From NCBI RefSeq assembly GCF_003019035.1, contig NZ_CP027447.1: a stretch of DNA of 64,000 nt. One strand, written 5' to 3'. Made by a program: the position numbers and the translations under genes. The stretch comes from Escherichia coli. Lineage in GTDB: Bacteria > Pseudomonadota > Gammaproteobacteria > Enterobacterales > Enterobacteriaceae. Below the pieces are notes generated by a model. The model saw only the letters and a list, made by a program, of their open reading frames with translations. It made no database searches and was not told the DNA's origin. This document shows, piece after piece, positions 6,700 through 11,714 of this stretch. Numbering within the stretch: the first letter of the stretch is position 1; each line of letters starts with the position of its first letter.

Positions 6700-7035
6700 T
6701 TAACTTTTGGTCATTTCACAAAGCGTATAATTTAATAAGCGTCCTAAACCACTGACGGTTTGTGATAACGCTTCTTCTACTGCGCCCACCGAGCCATAAA
6801 TCACCAGCGCGCCGCTAAAACGGTCGAGAAAACCGATATGCACATCGGCGGCTTTCAACGCTAAATCACCGGCGATCATCGCCGTTTCTCCGGGAGTTAG
6901 CGTCATAATGCCGATTGCGCCCGCATCCGGAACGCCGATTTTCTTCGCCAGTTCCTCGCCGGGATGCGCGATGAGATGCGCCAGTGTGACCTGTTTACCG
7001 GGCACAAATTCCTGAATGATGCGTTCTTTATCCAT
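6700..7035 (-). CDS. eutS: Microcompartment shell protein EutS (permuted BMC domain)
   Basis: Start placed at [10 protein letters not shown] giving 111 aa (ORF track extends to 7107); first gene of the eut operon. Confidence 0.9.
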
Positions 7036-7400
7036 GAGTCGCCGCCTGTGAAAAACTTTCGTGTATCGTGACAATTTTTCGTCAGAGTAAATAACAAAAT
7101 TCGGCAAGCGCGTTTAAAAGGTGAGGTAGATCACTAAGAATGGAGAGATATTTTATGTTAAGAAAAAAAACATACATTGTATGAATATAAACGGGAACCA
7201 ATAAGTTTTGTTTATCATATGTACTACAACATCTTTTAATAATCCCTCGAATCACCCGACGTTGTATTTTTAATAATTAGCAGAATACATATTTAATGTA
7301 CTGTTGTATTCTGAAAAATATTATTATCTTCACCCCATTTAAAATACATCTTACGCGATGATTTTATTCAGGAAATAAATAAAATGGATGGATCCCTGGA
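7036..7400. promoter_or_regulatory. Divergent AT-rich control region: eut operon promoter (minus strand, upstream of eutS) and promoter/leader of the inserted glycosyltransferase gene (plus strand)
   Basis: Non-coding, very AT-rich stretch between divergent genes; the eut main promoter lies upstream of eutS in enterobacteria; exact -35/-10 elements not assigned. Confidence 0.5.
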
Positions 7401-8471
7401 ATGAAAATTCACTACCTTGTCACCACCCTCGAAGCGGGAGGCGCTGAATTTGCGATTCCTGATATTGTGACTACTCTGCAAGACCTTGGTCATGAGGTGA
7501 AAATTTATGTCTGTGAACCCCGCGATATGGGAGCAGCGCCTCGTCTGGAAGCCGCTGGATTATCCTGGTGTTTATTATCAAATCGGCGGCGTTCTGAACC
7601 CATGCTTGTAGCTGCTTATCTGGCAAAAATCATTCACGACAAACCCGATCTCATCTGGACTTCGTTAAGTTGGGGGACTCGTATTGGGCAATGGGTCGGC
7701 CGGCTTATGGGCATTCCTGTTATCAGTTTTAAACATAGCGCCAGCGTAAAACCAGCGACCTGGCGTATGCGCAACATGTCTCGTTTATGGATAGGAGATT
7801 CTGAAACCGTAGCTCAATACCTGCATGAAACCATGTTGATCCCGAAGCAACAAGTGCTGTGCTGGCCCTTTTTTCAGGCGAATCCGCAAGCTGCCCAAGC
7901 GCAAAACTGGGACGGGAAATCAGTTTTACAATTAGGCTCTGTTGGACGCCTGCATGAAGTTAAAAATTACGCTGGATTAATTACAGCACTCGCTTCGTTT
8001 GTAGATAAAAACCCGCAATTGCGCTCGCGAATCCGATTAACCATTCTCGGTGAAGGGCCTGAACAGGAAGCATTGCAAAAAACCATAACGCAACACGCGT
8101 TGGAGGATGTGGTTTGTTTAGCGGGTTTTTCTGCGGATGTCGAAAATTTTCTTGCCGGATTACATGTCTACATCCAGACCTCCCGCTACGAAGGGATGTG
8201 CCTCGCTGCACACGAAGCCATGAATGCAGGGCTTGCAATCATCACGACTCCTGTAGGCGAACTTAAAGAATCGGTAATAGATGGTCATACTGGATATACG
8301 CTTAATGGCGAGCTAACGCCAGCGCTGGAGGGTGTGCTTAACCGTATTTTAAGTGAACCCGAAGAATTAGAACGCTATGGGCAAAATGTGCGGCAGTATG
8401 TATTAGCGAAGTTCAGCCATGAAAATTTTGTCCAGTCTGCAATCAACATCGTCAATAGACTTATTCACTGA
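7401..8471 (+). CDS. GT-B fold glycosyltransferase (GT4-like), accessory gene
   Basis: 356-aa ORF; C-terminal retaining-GT signature (SRYEGMCLAAHEAMNAGLAIITTPVGELKESVIDGHTGY, an E-x7-E-like motif); no signal peptide; weak ribosome-binding site. Confidence 0.8.
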   Translation: MKIHYLVTTLEAGGAEFAIPDIVTTLQDLGHEVKIYVCEPRDMGAAPRLEAAGLSWCLLSNRRRSEPMLVAAYLAKIIHDKPDLIWTSLSWGTRIGQWVGRLMGIPVISFKHSASVKPATWRMRNMSRLWIGDSETVAQYLHETMLIPKQQVLCWPFFQANPQAAQAQNWDGKSVLQLGSVGRLHEVKNYAGLITALASFVDKNPQLRSRIRLTILGEGPEQEALQKTITQHALEDVVCLAGFSADVENFLAGLHVYIQTSRYEGMCLAAHEAMNAGLAIITTPVGELKESVIDGHTGYTLNGELTPALEGVLNRILSEPEELERYGQNVRQYVLAKFSHENFVQSAINIVNRLIH

Positions 8472-8484
8472 ACAAGGCAGAAAA

Positions 8485-9387
8485 ATGAATTGCTATACCA
8501 CCGATCTTTGGCAGATAGGCATTGTTCAGGCCCCCATACAGCACATTGTTGCTTCTGGCAGTTTGGATGGCTTCAGGATTAAATGGATTACCCCGGATAA
8601 ATCACTCACTTTTCTTGCCGATCCTTTCGGTCTGTGGAAAAAAGGGGTTCTCTATCTTTTCGCGGAATCCTACGATTATCGGACTCGTCGTGGCGATATT
8701 ATCGCTTATAAGCTCAATGCTGACCTGGACGTCATTGAGCAACGAACTGTGCTACAAGAACCCTGGCATCTTTCTTATCCTTTTGTGTTTGAAGCCGATA
8801 ACGAAATCTGGATGTTACCTGAAGGATATAAATCAGGTACGCTAACGTTGTACCGCGCTATAGAGTTTCCCTGGCGATGGGAAAAGGTGCCAGATTTTTC
8901 ATTCCCTTGCGCTGCCATTGATGCCACCCCCTTTTACGCACAAGGAAAATGGTGGATGTTTTATACTCCCCCACTACCAAAGGCAGCCAGGACGGATACG
9001 TTAATGCTCGCTCATGCCCCCCATTTTATGGGGCCATGGGAAAACGTCCTGCAAACTGCCGCGCACAGGAATAAAAGCGGCGCGCGTATGGGCGGAACAC
9101 CATTTGATCATGATGGGCAAATTTTCTTACCAACACAAGATTGCAGCCGAACCTACGGTGGCGCATTGCAGATGCTGACACTAGACCCACAACGTTTATT
9201 AACTCCAGAATTTGCTGCCTCTGTGCGCCTGGAAGTGCCTGCAAGTGCCGCGCCTTTTATTGCTGGCATGCATACGCTTTCTGGCGTTGGCGACGTAACA
9301 TTCATTGATGCCAAGCGACACCTTAAAGGTTCGCCTCAGCGATTATGGGTGGATTTGCAGCGGCGGATACAGAAGTGGATCAGCTAA
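8485..9387 (+). CDS. Uncharacterized protein, probable five-bladed beta-propeller glycoside hydrolase/phosphorylase-like (GH43/GH130-type fold, inferred)
   Basis: 301 aa from the ATG at 8485 (ORF track starts earlier at 8419); N-terminal blade-like motif FLADPFGLWKKGVLYLFAE with conserved Asp/Glu and many Trp/Tyr/Phe; no signal peptide; 13 nt after the glycosyltransferase stop. Confidence 0.65.
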   Translation: MNCYTTDLWQIGIVQAPIQHIVASGSLDGFRIKWITPDKSLTFLADPFGLWKKGVLYLFAESYDYRTRRGDIIAYKLNADLDVIEQRTVLQEPWHLSYPFVFEADNEIWMLPEGYKSGTLTLYRAIEFPWRWEKVPDFSFPCAAIDATPFYAQGKWWMFYTPPLPKAARTDTLMLAHAPHFMGPWENVLQTAAHRNKSGARMGGTPFDHDGQIFLPTQDCSRTYGGALQMLTLDPQRLLTPEFAASVRLEVPASAAPFIAGMHTLSGVGDVTFIDAKRHLKGSPQRLWVDLQRRIQKWIS

Positions 9388-9390
9388 ACC

Positions 9391-9416
9391 GCTTACCCTG
9401 AATATTCAGGGTAAGC
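9391..9416. terminator. Perfect 26-bp palindrome (GCTTACCCTGAATATTCAGGGTAAGC), likely bidirectional terminator between the convergent accessory gene and maeB
   Basis: Exact inverted repeat read directly from the sequence, between two converging stop codons; no strong U-tract. Confidence 0.5.
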
Positions 9417-9434
9417 GTGAGAGTTAAGAATGAA

Positions 9435-11714
9435 TTACAGCGGTTGGGTTTGCGCTTCAACCACAGCCAGCGCCACCATGTTGACGATACGACGTACCGA
9501 TGCGATCGGCGTTAACACGTGAACCGGTTTCGCCACGCCCATCAGCACCGGACCGACAGTCACACCTTCCGAGCTGGAAACGCGCAGTAAGTTGTAACTA
9601 ATGCGGGCAGCTTCCATGTTCGGCATCACCAGAATATTAGCGGAACCTTTCAAAGGGCTGTCCGGCATACGGTCGTTGCGAATCGCTTCCACCAGCGCTG
9701 CATCGCCGTGCATTTCACCATCAATCATCAGTTCTGGCGCACGTTCCCTGACCAGTTCCAGCGCCTGACGCATTTTGCTCGACGACGGGCAGTCAGAAGA
9801 ACCAAAGTTGGAGTGCGACAACAGAGCCACACGCGGTTCAATACCAAAACGACGAACAGTTTCTGCCGCCATCAAGGTGATCTCCGCCAGCTCTTCTGCA
9901 TCAGGCTCATCATTGACGTAGGTATCGGCAATAAAGGTGTTACCACTCGGCAACAGCAGCGCGTTCATTGCACCTGCGGTGTGAACGCCATCGCGATAAC
10001 CAAAGACATTTTTCACCACGCTAAAGTGTTCATGATAATCGCCCACCGTACCGCAAATCATTGCATCGGCTTCGCCACGCTGAACCATGATCGCGCCGAT
10101 CACTGTCGGGTTACTGATCAGCGCACGCTGCGCCTGCTCCTGAGTGACACCGCGACGCTTCATGATCTGGAAGTATTCGGTCCAGTACTCTTTAAAGCGC
10201 GGATCGGATTCGTTATTGACGATCTCAAAATCAACACCCGCTTTGATCTGCAAGCCCAGTTTCTGAATGCGCATTTCGATCACGTTCGGACGACCAATAA
10301 GAATCGGTTTCGCCAGTCCCAGCGTTACCAGTTCCTGAGTGGCATGCAGAACGCGCGCCTCTTCCCCTTCCGGCAGAACGACGCGCTTCGGCGCTTTGCG
10401 AGCCTGGGAGAAAATCGGCTTCATAAACAGGTTGGTTTTGTAAACGAACTCCGTCAGCTTGTCGATGTAGACGTCGAAATCAGCAATCGGACGCGTCGCC
10501 ACGCCAGACTCCATCGCCGCTTTCGCCACCGCTGGAGCGATCTTAACGATCAAGCGCGGATCAAACGGTTTTGGAATGATGTATTCCGGACCAAAGCTCA
10601 GATCCTGATCGCCATACGCTGAAGCCACCACTTCACTCTGTTCCGCATGGGCCAGTTCTGCAATCGCGCGTACTGCCGCCAGTTTCATCTCTTCGTTGAT
10701 GGCGGTTGCGCCAACGTCCAGCGCGCCACGGAAGATAAACGGGAAGCAAAGGACGTTGTTCACCTGGTTCGGGTAGTCGGAACGGCCGGTACAGATGATG
10801 GCATCCGGACGCACTTCTTTCGCCAGCGGCGGCAGAATTTCCGGTTCCGGATTCGCCAGCGCCAGGATCATTGGTGCCCGAGCCATTTTCTTCACCATTT
10901 CCTGGGTCAGCACTTTCGGGCCGGAACAACCCAGGAAAATATCCGCGCCTTCAATCACATCATCGAGGGTACGTTTGCCGTCATCCACCACCGCATATGC
11001 GGCTTTGGTTTCCGCCATATTTGGCTCACGGCCCTGATAGATAACGCCTTTTGAATCACAAACCACGATGTTATGTTTTTGCAGCCCCAGCGCCACCAGC
11101 AGGTTCATACAGGCGATTGCTGCTGCACCCGCGCCGGAAACCACCATCCGCACGTCGGAGATGTTTTTCTCCACCACGCGCAATCCGTTGAGGATGGCGG
11201 CAGTGCTGATAATTGCCGTGCCGTGCTGATCGTCGTGGAATACTGGAATATTCATCCGCTCGCGCAGTTTCTGTTCAATATAGAAACATTCTGGCGCTTT
11301 AATGTCTTCGAGGTTGATGCCGCCGAAGGTCGGTTCAAGCGCGGCGACGACTTCAATAAATTTGTCCGGGTCGAGTTCATCAACTTCAATGTCAAATACA
11401 TCAATCCCGGCGAATTTCTTAAACAGAACGCCCTTGCCTTCCATCACCGGTTTGCCTGCCAGCGCGCCAATGTTGCCTAACCCCAGCACCGCCGTACCGT
11501 TAGAGATCACCGCCACCAGGTTACCACGCGCGGTATATTTGTAGGCTTTTAACGGGTCTTTTTCGATTTCAAGACAAGGTGCGGCAACGCCTGGTGAGTA
11601 GGCCAGCGCCAGATCGCGCTGCGTTGCCAGAGGCTTGGTTGGAGAAACCTGGATTTTCCCTGGAACTGGAAATTCATGGAAATCAAGTGCACTTTGTTTT
11701 AACTGGTCATCCAT
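9435..11714 (-). CDS. maeB: NADP-dependent malic enzyme MaeB (malic enzyme domain fused to PTA-like domain)
   Basis: 759-aa ORF starting [28 protein letters not shown]. Confidence 0.96.

Follow-up and report, generated by a model that had tools for sequence, protein, structure and literature searches.

The window analysed here, a stretch of 64,000 nucleotides of Escherichia coli DNA (contig NZ_CP027447.1, assembly GCF_003019035.1) that is 100% identical to E. coli strain SCU-301, carries two co-oriented genes on an accessory island of 2.2 kb (7154..9380). The first gene (7401..8471, plus strand) is an open reading frame with an ATG start that encodes a glycosyltransferase (GT) of 356 amino acids, and the second (8485..9387, plus strand) encodes a protein of 300 amino acids belonging to the GINT1_N family (PF24793), hereafter called the partner. 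The boundaries of the island were set by comparison with strain TG1: the flanks common to the window and TG1 stop at ...AATGGAGAGATATT (7153) and restart at CAGCTAAAC (9381). In K-12-type E. coli an unrelated eutS-maeB spacer of 122 bp occupies the same place. The GC content of the island is 45.7%, as opposed to 54-57% in the flanks. At its borders no target-site duplication, repeat or mobility gene was seen, i.e. neither integrase nor transposase, so that the island does not qualify as mobile-element cargo. The eutS gene (6700..7035, minus strand, in RefSeq) lies upstream of the GT gene and is divergent from it, and maeB (9435..11714, minus strand) lies downstream of the island, convergent with the partner gene. 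Elsewhere the window consists of core genes such as tkt, nudK, acrD, hyf and ppk, and it holds no lipopolysaccharide (LPS), capsule or O-antigen genes. Nor are there flippase, polymerase, initiating phosphoglycosyltransferase or chain-length genes beside the GT gene in the window, which sets the locus apart from Wzx/Wzy-type loci. A first reading of the sequence without database searches (the original prediction) had described an orphan GT gene with a weak Shine-Dalgarno sequence, located beside the ethanolamine operon and away from any polysaccharide cluster. The location is as described.

The weak Shine-Dalgarno sequence was also found. The bases ahead of the GT ATG are ggatccctgga, without an AGGAGG-like run at -6 to -12. 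From the sequence one can read a mini-ORF of six codons (MDGSLE*, 7385..7405, plus strand). Its TGA shares bases with the start codon of the GT gene (ATGA), and AGGAA stands 10 nt 5' of its own ATG. In strain MS 21-1, whose allele is 90.7% identical, this element is retained as MDGYL* with a TAATG overlap; it is not present in other genera. The mini-ORF may serve translational coupling for a GT gene without a good ribosome-binding site. At the other end, between the convergent partner gene and maeB, the sequence contains a perfect 10-bp inverted repeat, GCTTACCCTG-aatatt-CAGGGTAAGC (9391..9416). Since it also occurs in K-12-type genomes, it belongs to the conserved flank and lies outside the island. 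The repeat was missed by a simple consensus terminator scan, the matches of which were at chance level. Probably it is the maeB terminator, shared bidirectionally with the partner gene.

Pfam searches, an alignment of the orthologous family (A1, 37 sequences) and an AF2 model identify the GT as a cytoplasmic GT4 glycosyltransferase with a GT-B fold. Both halves of the protein score above threshold, with PF00534 (Glycos_transf_1) covering residues 178-332 (103.2 bits, cut-off 26.4, E 1.4e-29) and PF13439 (Glyco_transf_4) covering residues 13-155 (36.9 bits, cut-off 28.5, E 4.6e-9); PF13579 matches as well (33.0 bits, cut-off 29.7). The motif YEGMCLAAHEAMNAGLAIIT...VIDGHTGY, from which a GT-B enzyme of the GT4 type with two motif Glu residues had been predicted, corresponds to residues 263-298. 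It is intact: E264 and E272 are 8 residues apart, which is the EX7E spacing characteristic of GT4. When the 37 orthologues are compared, E272 is invariant, E264, R183 and K188 are each at least 90% conserved, and G13/G14 are likewise conserved. All share an M-K/R-I-x-Y amino terminus from the first residue on, which confirms the start codon. The GT is therefore an intact member of GT4, a family of retaining transferases. In accord with this assignment, the AF2 model of residues 1-356 (predicted local distance difference test, pLDDT, ~90) shows two Rossmann-like domains, and a Foldseek search against GT4 structures gave target template-modelling (TM) scores of 0.74-0.83 and E-values down to 3e-20. 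The closest structures include BshA, MshA, PglA, HepE, TarM and SdgB, and the majority of these six use UDP-GlcNAc or UDP-GalNAc; together with PimB' they show identities of 12-20% and nearly flat E-values. The N-domain of the GT is basic (isoelectric point 8.9), the C-domain is acidic (5.5), and no transmembrane segment was found. A search of 5.8 billion proteins revealed a sharply bounded orthologous family, with ~110 clusters at E <= 1e-53 and 34-99% identity, the next match being at 1e-18. A close characterised relative among LPS-core or O-antigen transferases, which would have spoken against the original prediction, was looked for and not found: the best matches among solved structures share 15-20% identity, and every NCBIfam equivalog stays far under its cut-off.

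The GT is, however, not the orphan that the original prediction had assumed, in which the partner gene was overlooked. The partner gene starts at ATG 8485, 13 nt past the GT stop, and is preceded by AAGG at a distance of 9 nt. RefSeq places the start at ATG 8419, which would yield 322 amino acids and an overlap of 53 nt with the GT gene. In an alignment of 28 sequences (A2) all 27 homologues align from ATG 8485, and thus the RefSeq start is probably 22 codons too long. The protein matches PF24793 above the gathering threshold (121.7 bits, E 4e-35), and its AlphaFold model is a five-bladed beta-propeller (pLDDT 95.3). The best fold matches of this model are GH130 beta-mannoside phosphorylases/synthases, and for GH130 enzymes of the same sort both phosphorylase activity and GDP-mannose-dependent transferase activity have been described (PMC12814180). 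On the sequence level no significant similarity to solved structures was detected, and a Pfam GH130 match is absent. The score with the Pfam GH43 model (30.1 bits over ~80 residues) falls below the cut-off of 32.2, and a profile comparison against the Protein Data Bank (PDB) gave an E-value of 0.097; in the alignment D46 (in ADPF) and D146 could match the two Asp residues of the GH43 catalytic triad (Asp/Asp/Glu), without a conserved Glu where the third residue is expected. As in the GT, no hydrophobic or transmembrane segment was found, in keeping with a cytoplasmic protein.

Across 138 diverse members of the partner family ten polar residues are 91-100% conserved (D46, E61, H95, E113, D146, R201, Q218, D219, H263 and D275). 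All of them are present in the E. coli protein, which speaks in favour of an enzyme and against a passive scaffold. The family is large. When 1.84 billion representative proteins were scanned in full with HMMER, 9488 GINT1_N-like clusters were returned, and this number, for clusters formed at 50% identity, is a lower bound on the size of the family. There are no NCBIfam models for it, nor for the TagF-like protein, the flippase or the fatty acid hydroxylase encoded near GT genes in other bacteria (see below). The majority of the more distant GINT1_N proteins (among P0266-P0386; L096, L097) have ~550 amino acids and an N-terminal formyltransferase-like domain with weak matches to PF00551, Fmt and ArnA, which explains the old 'formyl transferase' names of some members of 300 amino acids.

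To what extent the two genes belong together can be judged from their occurrence in other bacteria, the kind of survey that the original prediction had recommended. A species-level scan with one genome per GTDB species gave 310 loci, and the 80 best among them were retained. Neighbours were counted at 87 loci by clustering the ORFs within ~7 kb of the GT gene, and the contexts of individual homologues were looked up in addition. A GINT1_N gene is the commonest neighbour (25 of 87 loci), followed by genes for a Wzx-like flippase (21 of 87) and a TagF-like GT-B protein of ~400 amino acids (19 of 87). As a bare cassette of two co-oriented genes the pair is found in E. coli, Rouxiella, Shimwellia, Pluralibacter, Serratia sp. 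M24T3, Rosenbergiella, Carnimonas and a Halomonadaceae strain; overall, this bare form is maintained in at least eight genera besides E. coli. The two genes overlap by 4 nt or are separated by up to ~80 nt, and the cassette is flanked by different housekeeping genes each time, for example sufA/tetR, a cation-efflux gene/nadA or an acetyltransferase gene/glnE. The pairwise identities of the GT and of the partner correlate strongly (r = 0.91, 26 pairs), indicating that both are inherited as a unit. There are also natural fusions. P0331 (847 amino acids) joins a GINT1_N domain with a GT4 domain and is encoded directly after a flippase gene, and P0372 (1018 amino acids) joins a flippase with GINT1_N. 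Judged from this comparison of genomes, the GT and partner genes are functionally linked.

Two observations on individual carriers may be added. Acetobacter thailandicus LMG 30826 (L017, L036) harbours a cassette of the enterobacterial type, with 62% identity to E. coli for the GT as well as for the partner, together with an Acetobacter-type GT copy (45%). These copies suggest a transfer between Enterobacterales and Acetobacteraceae in common insect or plant niches. Two GT copies are also present in a Pluralibacter metagenome-assembled genome (L014, L021).

Outside the bare cassettes, the neighbourhood of the GT is rich in genes for lipids and glycan export. Caulobacter and Sphingomonas possess a five-gene cluster encoding the GINT1_N protein (GINT1N), the TagF-like protein, the flippase, the GT orthologue (GT4a) and a second GT4 enzyme (GT4b). 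In Gluconacetobacter sacchari (L092, 5778-11997) and Commensalibacter intestini (L070, 5205-12047) GT4a follows a gene row for (metallophosphoesterase)-LptF-LptG-fatty acid hydroxylase family protein-MobA/IspD-like nucleotidyltransferase, with GINT1N convergent. On a plasmid of Acetobacter pomorum, genes for an LptF/G permease and a flippase adjoin the GT gene, at a locus in Sphingobium a DedA/VTT gene lies upstream, and the wider GINT1_N family sits in clusters with Wzx, GT4, acyltransferase and exosortase genes. These neighbours point to a product, either a lipid-anchored glycan or a glycolipid, that would be built at the cytoplasmic face before its export. They thereby disfavour the suggestion of the original prediction that the acceptor may be a small molecule or a protein. 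The Gluconacetobacter/Commensalibacter arrangement itself resembles an uncharacterised envelope-lipid operon tied to LPS exporter permeases.

The vicinity of maeB was considered as a functional clue as well, given that BshA uses malate, but was rejected as coincidence, as it is seen only in E. coli and Sphingomonas naphthae among ~87 loci. In S. naphthae (L007, 15681-17053) the GINT1N gene is convergent with a maeB-type malic enzyme gene, like in E. coli.

In light of these findings it is reasonable to propose, with roughly even chances of being correct, that the cassette is a minimal two-gene module for the modification of a glycan or glycolipid at the cytoplasmic face. Its target would most likely be a cell-envelope glycolipid or a lipid-linked glycan. 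According to this proposal, the GT4 enzyme acts at the cytoplasmic face of the inner membrane. With a UDP-sugar as donor, it would attach a hexose or N-acetylhexosamine in alpha linkage, retaining the configuration, to an acceptor that is anchored by a lipid. This acceptor might be lipid A-core, an undecaprenyl-diphosphate-linked repeat unit (such as that of enterobacterial common antigen, ECA, or an O-unit) or a membrane glycolipid. The absence of a transmembrane segment from both proteins and the basic N-domain of the GT were counted in favour of such a location. The GINT1_N propeller, whose fold is of the GH130/GH43 class, would be an enzyme that binds sugar in the cytoplasm and acts on the same substrate as the GT. 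It might add or remove a second sugar or group, or present or recognise the acceptor. As the E. coli cassette lacks the export genes found in Alphaproteobacteria, its product would need resident machinery to exit the cytoplasm, namely MsbA/Lpt or a resident Wzx. Donor, acceptor, membrane association and partner chemistry are thus predicted, and so is expression of the cassette in E. coli.

A number of observations weigh against this proposal. The E. coli cassette comes without a flippase, polymerase or initiating transferase, and the structural neighbours BshA and MshA have soluble acceptors. An AF2 model of a GT-linker-partner fusion, built with 20 paired sequences, reached a predicted TM score of 0.53 and shows each domain with confidence and no confident interface between them. 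A promoter scan detected no sigma-70 consensus promoter in 6900-9600. Some residues are atypical in E. coli: the GT carries Ala where nearly all members of its family have P279 (A1), and the partner lacks the loop residues H188/N191/P192/D196 kept by most of its family. In seven further E. coli genomes the GT is intact, though its allele has diverged (90.7-97.1% identity), and the partner gene beside it has decayed. This remnant of ~600 bp has lost its 5' third, contains frameshifts and is not annotated at all by RefSeq (MS 21-1 and GF131; L093 and L094, 5072-5670). Either the GT is able to work alone, or these copies are on their way out. Finally, a literature search found no paper on the GT family, and no acceptor, donor or phenotype for any of its members.

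A rival explanation, which we regard as unlikely, is that the product is soluble. The pair would then make and turn over a cytoplasmic glycoside, such as a thiol precursor of the BshA/MshA kind, a compatible solute or a storage oligosaccharide, with the GT4 enzyme as synthase and the propeller as phosphorylase, hydrolase or de-N-acetylase. Both proteins are soluble and cytoplasmic, the gammaproteobacterial cassette has no flippase, and many carriers stem from sugar-rich niches (nectar, bee gut, vinegar). Furthermore, the solved structures nearest to the GT are those of BshA and MshA, enzymes with malate and inositol phosphate as acceptors, and BshA is also the third-best NCBIfam model for the GT. 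Yet the GT is not an equivalog of either enzyme, as it scores far under both cut-offs (67.5 bits against 273.7 for BshA, TIGR03999, and 42.1 against 462.5 for MshA, TIGR03449), and the structural ranking is little informative because the Foldseek E-values are nearly flat over many GT4 enzymes, including PglA and WbnH, which are transferases for lipid-linked glycans. The recurrent neighbours and fusions involve flippases, LptF/G, DedA and additional GTs, not metabolite pathways.

The distribution of the island within E. coli bears on another explanation, namely that it is decaying and functionally silent, being what is left of a larger locus, ancestral or imported, and that the GT is still intact only for want of time. 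The full 2.2-kb island is present in 83 of 5426 complete E. coli genomes; the carriers include a strain named ST648, IMT16316, MS6198 and ECONIH1. The cassette is lineage-restricted and carried by a minority E. coli lineage. Its rarity (83 full copies plus the seven with the GT only) would fit a remnant, and since all 83 copies are at least 99.9% identical and effectively represent one clone, their intactness carries little weight. Moreover, the second allele group has a pseudogene in place of the partner gene, an IS1 transposase gene is inserted within the island region of one carrier genome (NZ_OW967003.1), and the alphaproteobacterial companion genes are missing. The weak Shine-Dalgarno sequence, the lack of a detectable consensus promoter and the loss of some otherwise conserved residues from GT and partner would also be expected of decay. 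On the other hand, the GT alleles have accumulated many substitutions at dN/dS (nonsynonymous to synonymous divergence) ratios of 0.14-0.19 over dS values of 0.08-0.31, without a stop codon or frameshift in the GT, which shows that the GT is under purifying selection. The GT motif residues and the ten family-wide polar residues of the partner are all kept, and the bare cassette in at least eight other genera indicates that the two-gene form is a stable unit and not a stump. Altogether, decay strikes us as distinctly unlikely; if the cassette were silent or decaying, it would be an ordinary accessory remnant.

The age of the island can be addressed by comparing the GT alleles with their surroundings. 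The highest dS value, 0.31, separates the window from MS 21-1 (L093/L094, 4001-5071), whereas the flanking genes eutP, eutT and maeB differ by dS values of only 0.03-0.07. Consequently, the island alleles are older than the surrounding core, or recombination brought them in separately from different donors. Outside E. coli, identity to the closest relatives, which are in Pluralibacter, is 68%, and no Escherichia, Salmonella or Citrobacter representative is among the best 80 of the 310 loci, where relatives of more than ~40% identity would rank. A search for island remnants in the K-12 spacer was fruitless, with a local alignment score of 12 compared with 12.6 ± 1.6 for shuffled sequence. The K-12 state therefore does not tell insertion from loss.

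Two further explanations are considerably weaker. That the GT is a protein O-glycosyltransferase like SdgA/SdgB or GtfA, with the propeller as substrate-binding co-factor, is very improbable. GtfA works with a partner protein, GtfB, and the matches of the GT in NCBIfam and in the structure searches include SdgA/SdgB as well as GtfA. But the scores are far under the cut-offs (52.5 bits against 800 for SdgA), no gene for a serine-rich or repeat substrate or for accessory Sec is nearby in any locus examined, and the neighbours are genes for lipids and glycan export. An anti-phage role as part of a conflict system of the GT4-conflict type, to which a weak PF20706 match and the accessory, lineage-restricted and low-GC nature of the island might hint, is hardly credible, as the PF20706 score (25.7 bits, E 7e-6) is below the cut-off of 26.0 and overlaps the generic GT4 match, no PADLOC model matched GT or partner, no defence genes are adjacent in any locus, phage records contain no close relative (only one remote partner match of 23.5% identity), and the GT has no relative in enterobacterial plasmid records, its plasmid matches being confined to Sphingomonadaceae and Acetobacter replicons.

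Returning to the proposed envelope-modifying module, one may go a step further, although we hold this extension to be doubtful. The propeller could be a catalytic partner of retaining glycosyltransferases, either an inverting transferase/phosphorylase of the GH130/GT108 kind or a de-N-acylase, and GT plus GINT1_N could represent a widespread two-enzyme module that ranges from bacteria (with GT4) to plants (as a GT64 fusion). In E. coli of the sequence type 648 (ST648) kind such a module would add a lineage-specific decoration to the LPS core, ECA or a membrane lipid, and recognition by phage, serum or host might be altered. The cassette would mark the ST648-type clone and could change a surface structure relevant to phage, serum and host. 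It would also be the smallest genetically tractable example of GT4 plus GINT1_N, with natural carrier and non-carrier strains. GINT1_N occurs in many polysaccharide loci and in plant GINT1, and the E. coli cassette offers a convenient way to learn the role of the propeller.

A comparison with known systems helps to place the pair. The literature searches yielded no paper about WP_022645959, GINT1-like proteins of bacteria or a glycosyltransferase close to eut in ST648. By curated thresholds, the GT is outside the BshA, MshA, WaaB and WaaK-type families. With BshA and MshA, its top matches among structures and PDB sequences, the GT shares the GT-B fold, the EX7E region and a similar nucleotide-binding C-domain, and each of these enzymes belongs to a pathway in which a second enzyme acts on the product. 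The identity to the GT is, however, only 15-18%, their partners are LmbE-type deacetylases and not propellers, and their acceptors are soluble.

The GT4 enzymes of LPS-core and lipid-linked glycan synthesis (WaaG, WaaB, the PRK15484 GlcNAc transferase, PglA/PglJ/PglH and WbnH) have family and fold in common with the GT. They work at the cytoplasmic face on lipid-anchored glycan substrates, and they were matched both by structure (PglA, WbnH, 5n7z) and by NCBIfam. The latter scores are low, i.e. 37.0 bits against a cut-off of 618 for PRK15484 and 27.4 against 385 for WaaB (PRK09922). In contrast to the waa, rfb and wec enzymes, the GT is encoded outside those loci, and we know of no propeller partner for any of these GT4 enzymes. 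GH130/GT108 enzymes (Teth514_1788, Uhgb_MS and the Leishmania MTPs) resemble the partner in fold, but with an identity of 9-15% and its own set of conserved residues the partner constitutes a distinct family.

Caulobacter Sgt1 and Sgt2 are encoded by adjacent GT4 genes, glycosylate a membrane lipid (sphingolipid) and have relatives in Sphingomonadaceae (PMC6445935). Members of the GT family described here likewise occur in GT4-GT4 tandems in Caulobacter and Sphingomonadaceae. An identity of the two systems was rejected, on weak evidence: the N-termini deduced from primers (MRIVDV... and MPALSHGL...; PMC6445935, Table S3) are unlike M-K/R-I-x-Y, and sgt1/sgt2 are numbered beside fixK/fixT, whereas the neighbours at the Caulobacter locus L010 differ.

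The partner itself has a namesake in plants. Plant GINT1 (glucosamine inositolphosphorylceramide transferase 1) contains the same GINT1_N propeller, as defined by Pfam (PF24793), joined to a glycosyltransferase. To our knowledge, the role of the propeller has been described neither for plant GINT1 nor for the bacterial partner. The plant transferase is a Golgi enzyme of family GT64 with a GT-A fold, whereas E. coli has a separate cytoplasmic GT4 enzyme with a GT-B fold, and E. coli is without sphingolipid. The transferase of plant GINT1 acts on the head group of a glycolipid (PMC7980081, for the glycosylation of glycosyl inositol phosphorylceramides, GIPCs, in general).

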